This document shows, in pieces, positions 6,747 to 32,320 of a DNA stretch of 41,513 nucleotides. Positions within the stretch are counted from its first letter, which is position 1. Each line of letters begins with the position of its first letter. The notes under the pieces were generated by a model that was not told the origin of the DNA, did not search any database, and worked only from the letters and a program-made list of their open reading frames with translations. Source of the stretch: Candidatus Iainarchaeum sp. (lineage in GTDB: Archaea > Iainarchaeota > Iainarchaeia > Iainarchaeales > JAFCCJ01); the NCBI GenBank assembly GCA_043816965.1, contig JBDRHK010000031.1, positions 1 through 41,513 of the forward strand, written 5' to 3'. Both the position numbers and the translations under genes were made by a program.

Positions 6747-7352
6747 GTGGCAAGGCCTAGAAGGGCGGTGGTGGCAAAGCTTGATGCCGGTTCGATTAAG
6801 GAGCCAAGCGAGGGCATACGGAGGAAAGTGGCAAAAGCTGTGGGGAAGCAGACCCTATTCCTGATTTCCTCCGCGAATTTCTCGGAAACCGTGCAGATGC
6901 TTGTGAAGATTATAACCAATGAAATGGTGCATGAGGCAATCTATCTTTCAACCCATGACTCTTTTCGATTTCTAGCGAATTACTTCAATGATGAATTGGT
7001 GGACATAAACAAAATTTCGTTCATAGACTGTGTTTCAAAAACCATGGGCATTAGGGTGGTGAATGAAAGGATTTTCCTCGTGGATTCCGTAAGCAACCTT
7101 GGCAGCATTGATTCAGCAGTATCGAATCTTATGGCGCTTTTGAAAGGAGAGGACAATTTCTTCATTCTTGACTCAATAGAAGGGCTGGTAATAAGCAATT
7201 CCGAGAAGGACTCAATTGATTTTATCGGGCAGATTGTATCAAAGATGCGTAATCTAAAAATGACGGGAATATATTTTGCAATAAAGGAAGAAAGGGACAG
7301 CCGAATGATTCAAAAGCTGGAGAAAATATTTGAGCAGGTAATTGAAATCTAA
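6747..7352 (+). CDS. Degenerate KaiC/RecA-fold protein lacking a P-loop
   Basis: AIYLS, SFIDCVS and FILDSIEGL. Same architecture as 4593-5291. Confidence 0.7.
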   Translation: MARPRRAVVAKLDAGSIKEPSEGIRRKVAKAVGKQTLFLISSANFSETVQMLVKIITNEMVHEAIYLSTHDSFRFLANYFNDELVDINKISFIDCVSKTMGIRVVNERIFLVDSVSNLGSIDSAVSNLMALLKGEDNFFILDSIEGLVISNSEKDSIDFIGQIVSKMRNLKMTGIYFAIKEERDSRMIQKLEKIFEQVIEI

Positions 7353-25668: not shown

Positions 25669-25827
25669 GGGCCCGTAGCTCAGTCTGGCAGAGCAGCGGA
25701 CAGATGCCAGCTTAACCAAATTGATGGTTTTGACTGCTTCTGGCTGAACCTTTTAACAAAAGGCCAGACTGATTAACGTCTTTTGAAAGAAAGCCGCGTG
25801 TCGAGGGTTCGAATCCCTTCGGGCTCG
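25669..25827 (+). tRNA. tRNA-Lys(TTT) with two introns (30/31: 25700-25748; 37/38: 25756-25791)
   Basis: Exons 25669-25699, 25749-25755 (CCTTTTA) and 25792-25827 give a 74-nt cloverleaf with anticodon stem GCGGC/GCCGC and G73. Both introns form BHB motifs. TTTAAAA box at 25634. Confidence 0.92.
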
Positions 25828-25911
25828 TTACACGGCTATCTCCGTGTACACGATGGCCTCCCCTTCGGGAGACCTAGCTCGGCCTAACGGCTTCGCCAAT
25901 AGGTGCCAAGC

Positions 25912-27537
25912 ATGGAAAACAAGGAAAACAGGGAAGCCCATTTCTGGGCAGAGAAAATCGCTGATGACGTGATTAATCGCGAGAAATTTCATTTCACTGG
26001 TGGCAAAATCCCGAAAATGAAGAAATGGACAGTTAAATCCTCTTCCTCCCTCTCCGGCGTTCTCCACATAGGGAGATTAAGTGATCTGATAAGGGGGGAG
26101 GCGGTCACAAGGGCGCTTCAGGAAAAAGGATTTCCTGCGGAATTCATTTATGTAACTGAGGACATGGATCCGTTAAGAAAAGTTCCTGAGGGAGTTCCTA
26201 ACGAATTTGAGAAATACATCGGCTTTCCTGTCAGCGACGTTCCCGATCCTGAAGGATGCCACGAGAGCTATGCAAAGCATTTCCTTGAAAAATTCCTGAA
26301 TGTTGTAAATGAGTTCATGCTAATTGAACCTAAGATTTATTCTATGAGGGAAGAATACAAGAAAGGAAATTTCACAGAACAAATAAAAATCCTGATGAAG
26401 CACGCCGACGAAGTGAAGGAAATAATCGACTCCCAGAAGGACACAAAAACAGAATCTTCATGGGTTCCTTTCAAGCCAATCTGCGAAAACTGCGGAAACC
26501 TCCAGACAACAGAAATCACAAAGGTTGAGGGGGACAAGGTCCATTACGTTTGCAAGGATTACAAATTTGAGAAATTCACGGCAAAAGGCTGCAACTATGA
26601 GGGCGCAACTGACCTAAACAAACCAAGCGGGAAACTTGCATGGAAAAGCGAGTGGGCGGCGCAATGGATGAGATGGAATGTCTGCAGTGAGGGGGCAGGA
26701 AAGGAATATGAATCTAAAAATTCAGCTTTCTGGGTCAATGCAGAAATTTGCGAAAAAATCCTGAAATTCCCAAAACCTGAACCAATTTTCTACGAACACT
26801 TATTGATTGACGGCGTAAAGATGTCCGCCTCTGTGGGAAATGTAGTTTACCCTGCTGACTGGCTAAAGGTCTCAAGGCCAGAAACTTTAAAGTATCTATA
26901 TATGAAAAGAATAAACAAGGCAAGAAGTTTCTCCTGGAAGGAAGTCCCGCTCCTGGAACTGGAATTAGACCGCTCCCTGCTGGCAGACGTTTCTGATAAG
27001 GAAGGGGCAAAAATGAGAAAAGTGGCAGACTATTCCTCAGTCAAAGGGAGAAAATTAATTCCCCTGAAAGCAGACTACTCCACAATATCATTCCTGACGC
27101 AGACAATTCCTGATGGTAAAAAAGTGATTGAAAAACTAAAAGATTTGGGGAAAATTTCCGGAAAAGAATCAAAAGAAGAGATGAATTTCATCACTGAAAG
27201 GATTGATAAATCAAGGGAATGGATTCAGAATTTCGCGCCTGAAGAGGCAAGGTTCACAATACTGGAAACTGTTTCTGATGAGGTGAAAAAGAAACTTAAA
27301 GATAATGAAAAAAAAGCACTTTCCCAAATCCCCGGAATTTTAAAGGAAGGAATCAGCGAGGAGGAGTTGGGCAAGAAACTATTTGATATTGCGAATGAAA
27401 ACAAGATCCCCCCTAAAGAATTCTTCAAAGTATCCTATCTGGTTCTCCTAAACCGGGAGCGGGGCCCCAAATTAGCCACTCTAATCCTCGGAATTGGAAT
27501 TGACCGGTCAAAAGCGATTTTTGGGCAGCTGAAATAA
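25912..27537 (+). CDS. lysS: Class I lysyl-tRNA synthetase
   Basis: HFWAEKIA, SGVLHIG (HIGH-like), DMDPLRKVP, PICENCG, KMSAS (KMSKS-like), RGPKL. AGGTG precedes ATG 25912. Confidence 0.96.
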   Translation: MENKENREAHFWAEKIADDVINREKFHFTGGKIPKMKKWTVKSSSSLSGVLHIGRLSDLIRGEAVTRALQEKGFPAEFIYVTEDMDPLRKVPEGVPNEFEKYIGFPVSDVPDPEGCHESYAKHFLEKFLNVVNEFMLIEPKIYSMREEYKKGNFTEQIKILMKHADEVKEIIDSQKDTKTESSWVPFKPICENCGNLQTTEITKVEGDKVHYVCKDYKFEKFTAKGCNYEGATDLNKPSGKLAWKSEWAAQWMRWNVCSEGAGKEYESKNSAFWVNAEICEKILKFPKPEPIFYEHLLIDGVKMSASVGNVVYPADWLKVSRPETLKYLYMKRINKARSFSWKEVPLLELELDRSLLADVSDKEGAKMRKVADYSSVKGRKLIPLKADYSTISFLTQTIPDGKKVIEKLKDLGKISGKESKEEMNFITERIDKSREWIQNFAPEEARFTILETVSDEVKKKLKDNEKKALSQIPGILKEGISEEELGKKLFDIANENKIPPKEFFKVSYLVLLNRERGPKLATLILGIGIDRSKAIFGQLK

Positions 27538-28870
27538 TTTTCTATTTTTTATTGAAAATTTTTGTGCCCGACAAATTTATATATAAGAAACAACATACTG
27601 GTCTGCATGCCTTTTAGCATGAAAAGCCCGGTTCTGGTTCCTGCTTTGGTAATTGTGGTGGTTCTGCTTGTTGCAATTATTTTAGGTTTATTGGTGCTGC
27701 CGTTGATTTTAGGTGATGGCCAACCAGTTCCTGGGGAACAAGAAAAAAAACCAGGGGAGGATTATGTGGCTCCAGAACCCCAAGATTGGGAAAACCCAAA
27801 AGGCACAGGGCTCACTGATGGAGGTGTCCCCATAGACCCAACTACTGGGGAAGTTGGAAGTCCATCTGCTAATCTTTTTTACTCAAAGAATTGCGGTGCA
27901 GGGCAGGCCATCCAGGGATTTGATTTGCAATCTTCCCAAAACCCGACATGCGTTTCAATAGAAAGCGGAAGATCTGGCACGGGGGATGTAATCAGTCCTC
28001 CTCCAGAAACCGGTGGAGACGAGCCAACAGGCGGTTCTGAAACACATTTCTCCAAAATTTGTGGTCCTGGGGAAGCGATTCAGTCGTTCAGCTCAGACCC
28101 CCTAGAAAACCCGACATGTGTTGAGGTTCCCTCTGAGGCAGGAACAACAATAGTTGAAGGCGAAGGCGTAACAATAGTTGACTATTCATGGAATTTAAGT
28201 GCAGATGGCTCAGAATCAGTAATAGATAATGGAGAAACTGTTGAGATTGAAGCAGGGGCGGGAATTTTGGTTTATAAGGAAGGAAATACTGTAAGCATCA
28301 CTGCAACAGAAGCTTTTGCAAAGTCTGTTTCATACATGAATGATTTCAAGCTTGTTGAGGCAAAGAAATTTCCAAACGAAATTAATGTTTCAGATGGACT
28401 CTCAGTAGGCCTGTTAGGAACTGGCGGAATTGACGTTTCCATAGATGAATCAGAAAACAGAGTCATAATCTCAAACACCAAACAATACGAGTATGGCACA
28501 TTCAAGGCAACATGCAATTCATCAGGCGTTGTTAACAACGACCCTTATGCGACCAGCCCTAGTGGTTTAATACATGTTGGGCAGTGCACTTCACAAGTAG
28601 TTTTGGTTTATTGCGAAAACGATGACGCAAAAATAATAAGTTATGGCGGCACCTGTGGAAACGCATATATTAAGGGCATCTACCCATATAGGCGAACAGA
28701 GCCCGCAGATAGCTGGCAGGACTTTGGGGGGATAGATACTGTCGAGCTAGAATGCAGTGCTGCAACTTCCAAAACCGTCTTTATAACCTGTATGAGAGAA
28801 AAGGCCTAATTTTTACTAAATTAAAGAATAATTTAGGTCAAAATCGATTTTTGGGCAGCTGAAATAATTT
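27506..28870 (+). mobile_element. Single-gene insertion bounded by 35-bp direct repeats of the lysS 3' end
   Basis: GGTCAAAAGCGATTTTTGGGCAGCTGAAATAATTT (27506-27540) vs GGTCAAAATCGATTTTTGGGCAGCTGAAATAATTT (28836-28870), one mismatch. The repeat is certain; mobility is inferred. Confidence 0.65.
27607..28809 (+). CDS. Membrane-anchored Cys-rich fibre/adhesin-like surface protein
   Basis: N-terminal TM helix, Pro/Gly/Glu linker, two SKxCGxGxAIQxF...NPTCV repeats, beta-rich middle and Cys-rich C-terminal domain. Confidence 0.75.
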   Translation: MPFSMKSPVLVPALVIVVVLLVAIILGLLVLPLILGDGQPVPGEQEKKPGEDYVAPEPQDWENPKGTGLTDGGVPIDPTTGEVGSPSANLFYSKNCGAGQAIQGFDLQSSQNPTCVSIESGRSGTGDVISPPPETGGDEPTGGSETHFSKICGPGEAIQSFSSDPLENPTCVEVPSEAGTTIVEGEGVTIVDYSWNLSADGSESVIDNGETVEIEAGAGILVYKEGNTVSITATEAFAKSVSYMNDFKLVEAKKFPNEINVSDGLSVGLLGTGGIDVSIDESENRVIISNTKQYEYGTFKATCNSSGVVNNDPYATSPSGLIHVGQCTSQVVLVYCENDDAKIISYGGTCGNAYIKGIYPYRRTEPADSWQDFGGIDTVELECSAATSKTVFITCMREKA

Positions 28871-28928
28871 CATTTCGCACCGGAAACCCACTCCCGAAAT
28901 CAATTAAGAAGGGAATAAACTTATTTTT

Positions 28929-29801
28929 TTGATGCGAAAGTTGTCCCCGCTACACGTAGAACAAATCCGAAATCTTAGGAAAAATGGATTGGCGTACAAA
29001 AAGATTGCCAGAAGATTGCAAATAAGCCCTTCAACAGTCAGCAAATATTCAAGAAACATAATTCTGTCTAGAGAAAAGAAAAAACAACTAGAGGAAAACC
29101 AAAGTAAAAACCGACAAAAATTTGCGTCCAATTATGCTAGAGAGAAGCCAATTAAACTACCAAAGTTTGATGAAAATTTCGCTAATTTATTAGGCCACTT
29201 ATTTTTTGATGGATCAGTTAGTTATCATAATGGAAAATTTGTTTTATCATATACAAACTCATCTAAAAAAGCCATTAATTCCTTTAATAAAAAAATAGAT
29301 TCTTGTTTTGGATTGACGCCTTCAAAGATTTATAAAGTGAAAGGCAAAAACACAGATTGGTTTATGGCACAGACCTATTCAAAAAAAGCGTATTCTTATT
29401 TGAAATCAATTTCATGCTCATTCAGTACGTCTGAAGGAATCGGAATTCCGAAAGAAATAATCAATTCTAATTTTTCAATGAAAGCATCTTTCTTAAGGGC
29501 CTTCTGGGACGATGAAGGAAGCATATCTAACACAAGCGAGCTAACAGGCACATCCAATAGTGAGAAAATGATTGATGATTTAATAACAATCCATAAAGAA
29601 TTTGGAATCATTTGTTCAAAATATAGGCAAGTTAAAGAAATGGGGAAAGATATTTTTCACCTTAGAATTAATGGGAATGAAGATAACTTTTCCAGATTTA
29701 TTGAGAAAATAGGGTTTGAGCATGCAATTATAACAAGAGGCCATCACATAGGAAAGTATAAAAAAGATGTATTAAGGAAATCTATGGGGAGATACCGATA
29801 G
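28929..29801 (+). CDS. Free-standing HTH plus double-motif LAGLIDADG endonuclease-like protein
   Basis: N-terminal HTH (GLAYKKIARRLQISPSTVSKY) and motifs ANLLGHLFFDG and SFLRAFWDDEG. Visibly AT-richer than flanking genes. The stop codon lies inside the tRNA 3' half. Confidence 0.88.
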   Translation: MMRKLSPLHVEQIRNLRKNGLAYKKIARRLQISPSTVSKYSRNIILSREKKKQLEENQSKNRQKFASNYAREKPIKLPKFDENFANLLGHLFFDGSVSYHNGKFVLSYTNSSKKAINSFNKKIDSCFGLTPSKIYKVKGKNTDWFMAQTYSKKAYSYLKSISCSFSTSEGIGIPKEIINSNFSMKASFLRAFWDDEGSISNTSELTGTSNSEKMIDDLITIHKEFGIICSKYRQVKEMGKDIFHLRINGNEDNFSRFIEKIGFEHAIITRGHHIGKYKKDVLRKSMGRYR

Positions 29802-29871
29802 GTCGTGGGTTCGAATCCCTCCGGGCTCGTTCTGGGCCCGTAGCTCAGTCTGGCAGAGCAATCGGCTCTTA
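29794..29871 (+). tRNA. Circularly permuted tRNA-Lys(CTT): 3' half 29794-29829, linker TTCT, 5' half 29834-29871
   Basis: 3' half ACCGATAGGTCGTGGGTTCGAATCCCTCCGGGCTCG precedes 5' half GGGCCCGTAGCTCAGTCTGGCAGAGCAATCGGCTCTTA. Stems ATCGG/CCGAT and GGGCCCG/CGGGCTC pair. The flanks form a BHB at 37/38. Confidence 0.85.
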
Positions 29872-29913
29872 GCCACGCTTTAAAAGACTTAGTAGTAAGA
29901 AATTAATAGTAAT

Positions 29914-30077
29914 GGGAAGGTAGCTCAGTCTGGGAGAGCACATGATGGGAACAAGTCGATTCCTTTAATGGTTTGGTTTTTCTCATGTGAAGCTGAAGAT
30001 GGGCAGCAGTATTTTTACTAATGCTCTGCTCCCAGCAGCTGACCATGGTGTCGCGGGTCCAAATCCCGCTCTTCCCA
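29914..30077 (+). tRNA. tRNA-Phe(GAA) with two introns (30/31: 29945-29991; ~37/38: 29999-30041)
   Basis: Exons 29914-29944, 29992-29998 (GCTGAAG) and 30042-30077 give 74 nt with stems GGGAAGG/TCTTCCC and CATGG/CCATG. Intron 1 has a strict BHB, intron 2 a relaxed motif. TTTAAAA box at 29879. Confidence 0.88.
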
Positions 30078-30142
30078 ATTTTAATTTTTTTATAATTTAG
30101 TTTAAATTAACTTCTTTTCACAATTCGTGGGAGGTTTGTTTC

Positions 30143-32320
30143 ATGCGAAAGGCCCCTATCTTTGTTTTTTTGATTCTTCTTTTTGCCGGCGCATTTGCAA
30201 TCGATGCACCTGTTGTAAGCAGCTCAAAATATCCTGTTCAGGGGGATTGGTATAGCGATGCATATGCGCAGTTCAGCTGGGAGCAGGGGGACGCGACATC
30301 ATTCAGCTATGTATATGACACCAATCCAGATACAATCCCGGATAACGTTGCCGAAACCACTGAACCAACCGCCTCATTGCCCCCAAAAATCGACGGCGAC
30401 TGGTATTTCCACATAAGGGCAAAAAAAGGGAGCGAAATCAGCGACACAACAACCTACCACATAAAGCTTGACATAACTAAACCCTCCCCCCCAACAAAGG
30501 TTAAAGTCGAGCCAACTGCAGAGGGATATTTGAGGGTGACCTGGAATGAGGCAACTGACATACATTCAGGTGTGGCATCATATAAGATATACAGAAGCTT
30601 CCTGACAAATTTTGATGTAAGGGACACAACCACGTTGGTGGTGGCAATGACCCAGGAGGGCACGAGCTTTGTTGATGAGGATGTCCTTGAAAACAGGGTT
30701 TATCACTACAAGGTGCAGTCAAGGGATGTGGCAGGCAATCTTGGCTCCATAGGCGCCGAGGCTGTTGGAAGGACACTAGGTTTCTGCGATATAACCATCT
30801 CCATTGACATGGCAATAACTGACGGCGAAAAACTTGAGATTGAAGTAGAATCAACAAATGGGGATATGAGATATGCCTCTATGGCGCTAATTCTTCCTGA
30901 CGGGACTGAAAATATTCTGGTTGAAAGGCAAATTCAAACCACGACAATGTCCAAAGAATTTGATTTATCCCAAACCGATGAAGGTTTGTTAAGAGTACGG
31001 GTCAACTCAGAAGACAGCGCAGGCGATGACTGTTTGGGTGAAGAGGAACTTTATTTCGATACCATTAACCCGTCTATTGAGATATTAACCCCGACAGGAA
31101 CAGAAAAAATCACGGAAATGGTTAAGGTTGAGGCAACAGCCACAGACACAGGAACTGGTGCCTCAGGAATTGAAAAAGTTGTTTTTTACAGGAAAGAGGG
31201 GGAGGAATGGGTTGAAATCGGCGAGGGGGTTGGCGAGGGCGACAGCTATGTCTTTGATTGGAACAGCTTCAATGCCCCAAATGGCAGGTATTTATTTAAG
31301 GCAGAGGTTATTGACAGGGCCGGAAATATAGGTGATGAAGAATTCCTGATAAATGTTGAAAACACCGCATTCATCAGGGCCCAGGCAGAAACCGCAATCT
31401 CTGCCGCAGAATATGGCAAGGCATCCGCGAATGAATTTGTTGCGCAGCTGGCAAATCAGAATATCGATTCAAATAATCTGATGGAGTTCCTTTCATGGGC
31501 AGATTCAAATCTAATGAAGGCCCAGGACCTTTATGATAAGGGATTTTATTTTGAGCGGGCCAAGGAACATGCTGAAACAGCAACGAAAATGTTCCTTCAG
31601 GCAAAAGAAAAAGTTAATGCCGAGAGCTATAAAACCGTAAAGAACGTGTTTGGTGATGAGCAGCTTGTTCAGGTGCTTAACTCTGCTGGTTTGCAGAAGC
31701 ACCTGCTAGAAGATTCCGCGGCAATGATTAAAAGATTTGGCGCGGAAAGAAAGATGAGAATCCTGAAAGTTACTGACTTTGATGAAACATATTACCTCGC
31801 CAATATCATAATTTCGATTAAAAACAATGACAAGGATGAACTTAACCTAAAACTAATAGAAATTATCCCTAAGGGAGTGGCAGAAAATACCGGGGCAATT
31901 GAAACTAATTTCCCTTTTGACGTGCTGAAGGAAGACCCGATAATTGTATTTTCCCCAGAAACTATTCTCTATGGCAAGCAGATGGAAATCAATTATGGTT
32001 TTGGCGGGGTTATGGATAAGGCCGCAGCCGATGATTTGATTGCCCAGGAACTTGCAGGCAAATACTCTTCCCCGCCAATTCTTCTCGATTCCTCTGTAGA
32101 AGTAACCCCGTCCACAATTTCTGTGCCCCTGTTTGACATTGACATCTCAGGCATTTTGTCAGGAGTCGATATCGGAATTATTCTTATTGTAGCGGTTGTA
32201 ATCATAATTTTTGTGCTGATAGTGGTTGTGATTGTTGTTGCGCTGATTATCGGGGTATTCTTTTTCTTGAAAAGCAAAAGAAATTCAAGGCAAAAGGACT
32301 TGAAAGACTTTTTAAGGTGA
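30143..32320 (+). CDS. Secreted, C-terminally anchored surface protein with FnIII/Ig-like domains
   Basis: Signal peptide, WYFHIRA, YHYKVQSRDVAGN, DRAGN repeats, C-terminal TM helix and basic tail. Confidence 0.85.
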   Translation: MRKAPIFVFLILLFAGAFAIDAPVVSSSKYPVQGDWYSDAYAQFSWEQGDATSFSYVYDTNPDTIPDNVAETTEPTASLPPKIDGDWYFHIRAKKGSEISDTTTYHIKLDITKPSPPTKVKVEPTAEGYLRVTWNEATDIHSGVASYKIYRSFLTNFDVRDTTTLVVAMTQEGTSFVDEDVLENRVYHYKVQSRDVAGNLGSIGAEAVGRTLGFCDITISIDMAITDGEKLEIEVESTNGDMRYASMALILPDGTENILVERQIQTTTMSKEFDLSQTDEGLLRVRVNSEDSAGDDCLGEEELYFDTINPSIEILTPTGTEKITEMVKVEATATDTGTGASGIEKVVFYRKEGEEWVEIGEGVGEGDSYVFDWNSFNAPNGRYLFKAEVIDRAGNIGDEEFLINVENTAFIRAQAETAISAAEYGKASANEFVAQLANQNIDSNNLMEFLSWADSNLMKAQDLYDKGFYFERAKEHAETATKMFLQAKEKVNAESYKTVKNVFGDEQLVQVLNSAGLQKHLLEDSAAMIKRFGAERKMRILKVTDFDETYYLANIIISIKNNDKDELNLKLIEIIPKGVAENTGAIETNFPFDVLKEDPIIVFSPETILYGKQMEINYGFGGVMDKAAADDLIAQELAGKYSSPPILLDSSVEVTPSTISVPLFDIDISGILSGVDIGIILIVAVVIIIFVLIVVVIVVALIIGVFFFLKSKRNSRQKDLKDFLR

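Follow-up and report, generated by a model that had tools for sequence, protein, structure and literature searches.

Contig JBDRHK010000031.1 of a Candidatus Iainarchaeum metagenome-assembled genome (MAG) carries, at positions 29785-29875 of its forward strand, a tRNA-Lys(CUU) gene in which the 3' half stands upstream of the 5' half. The window analysed is the entire contig (C31; 41,513 nucleotides, nt) of this Iainarchaeota MAG, here labelled G000, which comprises 1.34 Mb in 109 contigs with 42% G+C, 86% completeness and 1.4% contamination; all searches of G000 reported below refer to this 86%-complete assembly. The gene lies between a gene for a protein with helix-turn-helix (HTH) and LAGLIDADG domains and an intron-bearing tRNA gene, probably Phe(GAA).

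Structure and detection of the permuted gene

The 3' half (29794..29829, forward strand, tRNA positions 38-73) is composed of A38, the anticodon-stem strand CCGAT, AGGTC, a T arm (GTGGG/CCCTC), the acceptor strand CGGGCTC and the discriminator base G73, and lacks an encoded CCA. It is separated by the intervening sequence TTCT (29830..29833, forward strand), located between G73 and G1, from the 5' half (29834..29871, forward strand, positions 1-37), which contains the acceptor strand GGGCCCG, TA, a D arm (GCTC/GAGC), A26, the anticodon-stem strand ATCGG and CTCTTA. Therefore, the 3' half precedes the 5' half on one strand, with a 4-nt linker. Both halves are flanked by short segments able to pair with each other and with the anticodon loop: a leader (29785..29793, forward strand), formed by an outer strand TGG (29785-87), a central strand GGAG (29788-91) and the first two bases of the 3' bulge (29792-93), with a predicted cut after 29793, and a trailer (29872..29875, forward strand), formed by the third base of the 5' bulge (G29872) and an outer strand CCA (29873-75), with a predicted cut after 29871.

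The acceptor strands of the two halves pair at 7/7 positions (one of them G-U) and the anticodon-stem strands ATCGG and CCGAT at 5/5. When the halves were rejoined by coordinates, a canonical cloverleaf of definite isotype was obtained, which ARAGORN identified as tRNA-Lys(ctt) and which shares 58-65 of its 74 positions (78-88% identity) with the Lys(CUU) tRNAs of 11 relatives, in alignments free of internal gaps. A covariance model for Lys(CUU), built from the tRNAs of 13 relatives, matches the 5' half at 29834-29891 (26.2 bits; E 1.4e-6 in 6 kb, 3.2e-4 genome-wide) and, separately, the 3' half at 29791-29829 (17.9 bits), that is, in permuted order. The T stem contains a T50-T64 mismatch, which is common to the normal-order Lys(CUU) gene of a sister genome of the same genus (G001), so that it does not represent decay of the permuted copy.

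A preliminary description of this DNA, made from the sequence alone, had proposed the two halves, their TTCT linker and the Lys(CTT) isotype, had mentioned the T-T mismatch as a caveat and had anticipated that standard annotation would miss the gene. Reading of 29600-30100 confirmed every listed base, and the covariance model and the rejoined halves bear out the isotype. ARAGORN reports a single tRNA gene in the window, not at this locus, and the Rfam tRNA model gives 2 matches in the window and 29 genome-wide, without any at the locus; thus standard tRNA finders do miss it. The sole Rfam model that responds there is YrlA (40.5 bits, E 2.2e-7, model positions 23-85 of 114), its only match of note genome-wide, and it finds the locus because both share the order of T arm, acceptor and D arm. 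A loose scan of the genome for T arms with acceptor strands returned 166 rows, mostly noise, and by eye a tRNA-like 5' module was seen only for the pair on C31. The presence of a circularly permuted tRNA-Lys(CUU) with its junction at 37/38 is, thus, confirmed.

The bulge-helix-bulge motif

The leader and trailer form a bulge-helix-bulge (BHB), the motif cleaved by the archaeal splicing endonuclease, around the 37/38 junction. Its central helix pairs GGAG (29788-91) with CTCT (29866-69) through three Watson-Crick pairs and one G-U, its outer helix pairs TGG (29785-87) with CCA (29873-75) over 3 bp, and its bulges have 3 nt each (29792-94 and 29870-72); all the pairs proposed in the preliminary description were found at these coordinates. 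The register is the canonical archaeal one for a splice at 37/38, with 4 central, 5 inner and 3 outer pairs, and cloverleaf plus BHB amount to 27 pairs in the permuted precursor. With random genomic flanks, 4/4 central and 3/3 outer pairs arose by chance in 0.10% of 2,000,000 draws. The motif is within the range of strength read for the canonical introns of G000 (central helices of 3-4 pairs, outer helices of 2-8).

The junction in other DNA

Misassembly, a concern of the preliminary description, was addressed with contigs of four public runs compared with 29500-30200, none of which covers all 701 bases; marine and marine-sediment metagenome runs match this MAG. A unitig of 180 nt from run X1 spans 29772-29950 and differs at 2 positions, both outside the gene, in the spacer that precedes the next tRNA; X1 is perhaps the source sample of the MAG and, hence, perhaps not independent. 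A second unitig, of 151 nt and from another study (X3), covers 29746-29863 and carries the same permuted junction, TTCT included. In this unitig the region upstream of the LAGLIDADG gene is joined directly to about position 29734; therefore, the X3 strain lacks about 0.85 kb of the LAGLIDADG open reading frame (ORF) and keeps the TATA-like box described below, the leader and the permuted gene. The permuted junction is real in nature and not an assembly artefact, and strains appear to differ in whether they carry the HTH-LAGLIDADG gene. X3 also contains a 183-nt unitig from a normal-order relative, with an intron that ends in the same six bases.

Candidate promoter and codon demand

A TATA-like box, TATAAAAA (29757..29764, forward strand), is the candidate promoter of the permuted pre-tRNA and lies within the 3' end of the LAGLIDADG ORF. 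It scores 7/8 against TTTAWAWR, the box that precedes the tRNAs of G000, and starts 37 nt ahead of A38 and 28 nt ahead of the first BHB base. Among the 31 G000 tRNA genes examined, 28 have a box scoring at least 7, which starts 31-41 nt ahead of the mature 5' end in 20 of the 28 and exactly 35 nt ahead in 8. No box of this type was found at tRNA spacing before the 5' half. At the level of motifs, a single putative promoter stands ahead of the 3' half, and its spacing fits this half and not the 5' half. The same promoter logic led to the discovery of the permuted tRNAs of Thermofilum pendens, according to the available text of PMC3218864.

None of the 32 tRNAs reported by ARAGORN in G000 is a Lys tRNA. 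The CTCTTA loop occurs in 4 contexts in G000, of which only that of the permuted locus is tRNA-like, and the 24 matches of the Lys covariance model in G000 include no contiguous Lys tRNA. The search for another tRNA-Lys(CTT), also proposed in the preliminary description, was thus negative, and the permuted gene is the sole Lys(CUU) gene in the 86%-complete assembly. In 461 long ORFs of G000, AAG accounts for 8325 of 18935 Lys codons (44%).

Relatives and origin of the permutation

The lysyl-tRNA synthetase (LysRS) encoded in the window is 91% identical to its closest relative, located on a contig titled Candidatus Iainarchaeum (G001:C28), in agreement with the DPANN origin suspected from the sequence; other relatives carry the label Iainarchaeum or Woesearchaeota. 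Tandem arrangement with short spacers is found throughout the order for the genes of Lys(CUU), Lys(UUU) and Phe(GAA), all three being present in 6 of the 11 loci of one comparison and at additional loci in two others. In G001 the syntenic order is an intron-less Lys(UUU), LysRS, a normal-order Lys(CUU), a LAGLIDADG gene and an intron-bearing Phe. A more distant Iainarchaeum MAG (L033, LysRS 54% identical) presents LysRS, an intron-less normal Lys(CUU), a gene for an HTH-LAGLIDADG protein of 314 amino acids and Phe. Since the order Lys(CUU), LAGLIDADG, Phe is found in both, it is taken as ancestral. The T arm and acceptor of the permuted 3' half are 100% identical over 29 nt to those of G001 Lys(CUU), while the anticodon stem (ATCGG/CCGAT, versus CCTGG/CCAGG in G001) differs in three pairs, all of them compensated. 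The G001 gene has two introns, at 30/31 and 37/38 (a parse that uses BHB scores). Regarding introns, the pattern is reversed between the sister species, since in G000 it is Lys(UUU) that has two, whereas in G001 Lys(CUU) has two and Lys(UUU) none; intron content has, therefore, turned over between them.

In G000 the ancestral Lys(CUU) slot (28837..28871, forward strand) contains neither a promoter nor a tRNA. It holds the second copy of a 34-nt segment of the LysRS 3' end, which runs straight into sequence found downstream of the tRNA in G001 and L033. The two copies of this segment (27507-27540 and 28837-28870, 33/34 identical) form a direct repeat that flanks a 1.3-kb insertion without counterpart in G001. 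This insertion carries ORF415 (27562..28809), which codes for a Cys-rich protein of 415 amino acids with an N-terminal membrane anchor; it matches no Pfam or NCBIfam family and gave one weak PHROG match (E 0.049), so that it does not provide a recombinase to explain the rearrangement. About 100 extra bases, the permuted gene among them, separate the LAGLIDADG gene end from the Phe promoter in G000. Since G001 is normal-order at a syntenic site that is empty in G000, the permutation is recent, within the genus.

Conservation of the permuted order in relatives, which the preliminary description had suggested checking, was not found. Besides the normal order of G001, a scan with the YrlA model, which detects only a contiguous T arm, acceptor and D arm, was made in 151 genomes of the order, G000 included; 35 genomes matched, and the best 30 of 41 matches were examined. 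In 10 of these 30 loci a T arm is followed, in the order seen here, by acceptor strands of perfect complementarity; 9 of the 10 are junctions of intact tandem Lys genes and the remaining one is the permuted locus itself, and among these best 30 of 41 matches there is no permuted candidate from the other 150 genomes. A scan for the junction pattern gave 0 matches in genome contigs. In metagenome contigs it gave a single one, the locus L018, which was discarded as an unrelated bacterial YrlA cluster: positions 1453-1986 hold three tandem YrlA-like RNAs (76.5, 29.6 and 43.9 bits) on a contig of higher G+C taken as bacterial, and the locus was picked up because the first of them shares the acceptor and T-loop motif.

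The tandem Lys-Lys junctions, together with the shared six-base intron end of the normal-order relative, fit an origin by duplication and loss. The new copy sits about 100 nt into the end of the LAGLIDADG gene, beside the Phe of the old Lys-Lys-Phe cluster, and its leader aligns with the homologous end of the L033 and G001 LAGLIDADG genes; the leader may derive from this gene end or from the end of a 37/38 intron. As a tentative scenario, the birth of a permuted tRNA gene could have been caught here within one genus: a second copy would have arisen, then a permuted arrangement using intron-derived or recruited BHB flanks, and the original would have been lost afterwards. Repair of an endonuclease-induced break may have driven the rearrangement. 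If this were true, the locus would provide the first comparative record of the successive steps that lead to a permutation, and it would also demonstrate that a circular pre-tRNA with a linker of 4 nt can be matured by a DPANN set of endonuclease, RtcB and RNase P. Recruitment of the 3' strand of the anticodon stem from LAGLIDADG coding sequence was also considered; it amounts to a two-residue match and is kept as a curiosity.

Proposed maturation

The features described make it likely that the locus is a functional circularly permuted tRNA-Lys(CUU) gene of an Iainarchaeota (DPANN) archaeon, with its junction at 37/38; its transcription, processing and use in translation are suggested by sequence features. 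A single transcript, driven by the box at 29757-64 and starting at about 29784-29787, would contain leader, 3' half, UUCU, 5' half and trailer. The acceptor, D, T and anticodon stems would form across the linker, while leader and trailer would pair into the BHB. The splicing endonuclease would then cut after 29793 and 29871 and RtcB would join A37 to A38, generating a circular RNA of 78 nt with its acceptor stem closed by G73 and UUCU. RNase P would cut 5' of G1, RNase Z or exonucleases would trim to G73 and the CCA enzyme would add CCA. Alternatively, the linker could be cut before splicing; the two halves would then be annealed to each other and lead to the same product. This is the pathway known for algal permuted tRNAs, in which BHB cleavage, ligation of the circle, removal of the linker by RNase P and RNase Z and CCA addition are described in the accessible part of a review (PMC3978253).

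Genes for RtcB, RNase Z (above the cut-off) and the archaeal CCA enzyme are encoded in G000. EndA was found above the Pfam cut-off in 18 of 21 genomes searched, and archaeal RNase P RNA in 9 of 13; G001, whose EndA gene is truncated at a contig end, is included in both counts and G000 in neither. The many BHB introns of G000 imply an endonuclease.

Alternative explanations

The locus could also be a non-functional relic, left when a rearrangement near the LAGLIDADG gene placed the two halves side by side, with AAG read by tRNA-Lys(UUU) or by an unassembled Lys(CUU); this appears rather unlikely. Several observations weigh against function and some of them favour such a relic. The event is young, the sister species keeps the normal order and the layout is confined to G000 among the scan matches examined, so that conservation does not extend past the strain level; long-term purifying selection is therefore not supported, and a dead copy might still look intact after so short a time. 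A tRNA-Lys(UUU) is present in G000 and might read AAG, and the unassembled 14% of the genome could hold a normal Lys(CUU) gene. Neither EndA (by Pfam search) nor archaeal RNase P RNA was found in G000 (86% complete). Regarding the precursor, transcription predicted from the position of the box could start within the outer helix, there is no oligo-T run in the sequence between the trailer and the Phe promoter, and the 4-nt linker is a putative processing substrate. The BHB itself has an outer helix of just 3 bp and a G-U in its central helix. Cloverleaf plus BHB reach -29.9 kcal/mol in 29783-29878, 5.6 above the minimum free energy (MFE) of -35.5; the MFE fold is a different structure in which the BHB is not recovered, and the folding z-score against shuffles is only -0.78. 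As tRNAs often fold otherwise by MFE, little weight is given to this different MFE structure.

Against a relic, debris would require two independent deletions ending exactly at 37/38, in-register BHB flanks (a chance of 0.001) and a TATA-like box at tRNA spacing, a combination that is improbable. Moreover, the two strands of the anticodon stem have stayed complementary, their three differences from G001 being compensated, the ancestral copy has been lost, 44% of Lys codons are AAG, and the strain that deleted about 0.85 kb of the adjoining ORF kept box, leader and gene.

A tRNA-like RNA with another role is far less probable: either a module of the YrlA type or a signal, acting via RNase P and RNase Z, for the 3' end of the LAGLIDADG transcript, whose ORF does end inside the 3' half. 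YrlA is a bacterial Y-RNA-like RNA (Rfam RF02553) that needs a Ro-binding helix and an Rsr/Ro60 partner. Its tRNA-like domain has the T arm, acceptor-like stem and D arm in the same order in one strand, and it is the best Rfam match at the locus. However, this match is below the 69-bit gathering score, covers a part of the model that lacks the Ro-binding helix and finds no partner in G000, where TROVE/Ro60 genes gave 0 matches (86% complete), whereas the true YrlA of L018 scores 76.5 bits over positions 1-114. YrlA also lacks an anticodon arm split at 37/38, and the locus has a complete Lys anticodon arm divided exactly there and is the orthologue of the tRNA-Lys(CUU) of G001.

A chimeric join within the tandem Lys-Lys-Phe cluster is scarcely credible: near-identical tandem Lys genes like those of relatives could confuse assemblers and the genome is a 109-contig MAG, but collapse of a tandem would produce a normal-order chimera, not a 3' half beside a 5' half with unique flanks, and unitigs from two different studies carry the junction, one of them with a different upstream flank. 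Two other arrangements were rejected. A split, trans-spliced tRNA does not agree with halves located 4 nt apart and with a 5' half that no TATA-like box precedes at tRNA spacing, and a tRNA in normal order, interrupted by a giant intron that contains the LAGLIDADG ORF, would need a matching 5' half upstream, which is not found in 28760-29000. Apart from the permuted gene, the sole Lys-like 5' module is that at 25669, which differs in its anticodon stem and has a 3' exon of its own.

Comparison with known disrupted tRNAs

Permuted tRNA genes are very rare, and in Archaea two genes of one crenarchaeon have been described, as far as the available text of PMC3218864 goes: iMet and Tyr of T. pendens, which encode CCA, have their junctions at 59/60 and contain linkers of 7 and 1 nt. 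According to the same text, they are similar to the permuted Lys(CUU) in having the 3' part upstream of the 5' part on the same strand, a short intervening sequence, a BHB at the junction and a single upstream promoter, and in being missed by standard tRNA finders. They differ in that the junction lies in the T loop instead of at 37/38, in the length of the linkers (4 nt here) and in the presence of CCA and of a canonical intron, both of which the permuted Lys(CUU) lacks. Their host is a hyperthermophilic crenarchaeon and not a DPANN MAG and, in contrast to the G001 orthologue available here, that text describes no unpermuted sister orthologue.

Genes permuted at 37/38 (type II) are known from green algae, a nucleomorph and Cyanidioschyzon merolae, as summarized in the accessible part of the review by Soma (2014; PMC3978253). 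They share with the Lys(CUU) gene the junction, a BHB formed by leader and trailer, the absence of encoded CCA and the same proposed circular route. By contrast, they are eukaryotic and of other isotypes, intervening sequences range from 1 to 74 nt across all known cases, and their circular intermediates were detected by reverse transcription PCR, whereas the Lys(CUU) case is known from DNA. The split tRNA-Lys(CUU) of Nanoarchaeum equitans and Staphylothermus, also covered in the consulted text of PMC3218864, is the same isoacceptor and likewise depends on a BHB and on joining by splicing endonuclease and ligase. Its halves are joined at 30/31, the position of an intron in the G001 orthologue, and are encoded at separate loci, unlike the adjacent, reversed halves described here, which join at 37/38.

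No permuted tRNA of a DPANN archaeon was found in the literature, in a search that was thin on subscription journals; PMC5829648 and PMC8450103 mention permuted tRNAs only in general, in the parts available. Among the literature searched, this is the first permuted tRNA gene that could be found for DPANN and the first archaeal case at 37/38; the mechanism is the known one, in a new lineage. The case, thus, extends the permuted layout to DPANN and, in Archaea, to the 37/38 junction. Incomplete tRNA sets have been noted in DPANN genomes and hidden disrupted genes suspected (PMC5829648, available part), and here a permuted gene explains the "missing" tRNA-Lys(CUU) of a MAG. Inventories of tRNAs in such MAGs, as well as inferences of completeness and auxotrophy, need permutation-aware searches. 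With a normal-order sister orthologue, an outgroup and polymorphism among strains, the origin of the permutation is open to comparative study.

Neighbouring genes and other elements of the genome

The tRNA-Lys(UUU) gene (25669..25827, forward strand) was found with the Rfam tRNA model and has two BHB introns (25700-25748 and 25756-25791), at Sprinzl positions 30/31 and 37/38, which leave a micro-exon of 7 nt; ARAGORN miscalls the unspliced gene as Val(aac) and identifies it as Lys(ttt) once spliced by coordinates. It is followed by the class I LysRS gene (25903..27537, forward strand; Pfam tRNA-synt_1f, 3.7e-91), which served as synteny anchor. The HTH-LAGLIDADG gene (28929..29801, forward strand; Pfam LAGLIDADG_3 2.6e-13 and HTH_38 4e-7) codes for a protein of 290 amino acids that is 45% identical to the L033 protein (314 amino acids) in the same place and 24% identical to that of G001 (212 amino acids). 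Both LAGLIDADG motifs retain their acidic residues, and the G001 homologue lacks the HTH part. The 3' end of the gene holds the TATA-like box and the leader, and its last 8 bases overlap the 3' half of the permuted tRNA.

The probable Phe(GAA) gene (29914..30077, forward strand; Rfam tRNA 38.1 bits, with an insertion of 99 nt) starts 42 nt downstream of the permuted gene and has its own TATA box (29879-29886); relatives have Phe(GAA) at the corresponding position of the cluster. Its putative anticodon loop, CTGAAGA, lies at 29993-29999. By hand, a first intron with a good BHB can be placed at 30/31, while the second lacks a strict BHB, and ARAGORN without an intron model misses the gene.

Other observations concern the rest of G000. 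The RtcB gene (G000:C42:31153-33972) has a Pfam alignment split by about 1.5 kb inside a single frame of 984 amino acids, and the insertion is probably an intein. On the minus strand of G000:C10:2484-2863, a T arm/acceptor lies 380 nt from a tRNA-like 5' module that it matches; this element, missed by ARAGORN and Rfam, may be a tRNA gene interrupted by introns of about 300 nt in total. Two contigs share one Val(UAC)-type T arm and acceptor, at G000:C40:101-228 and near 7119 of G000:C89, the C40 copy being close to a contig end; the pair may represent a repeat, or an assembly break at a tRNA.

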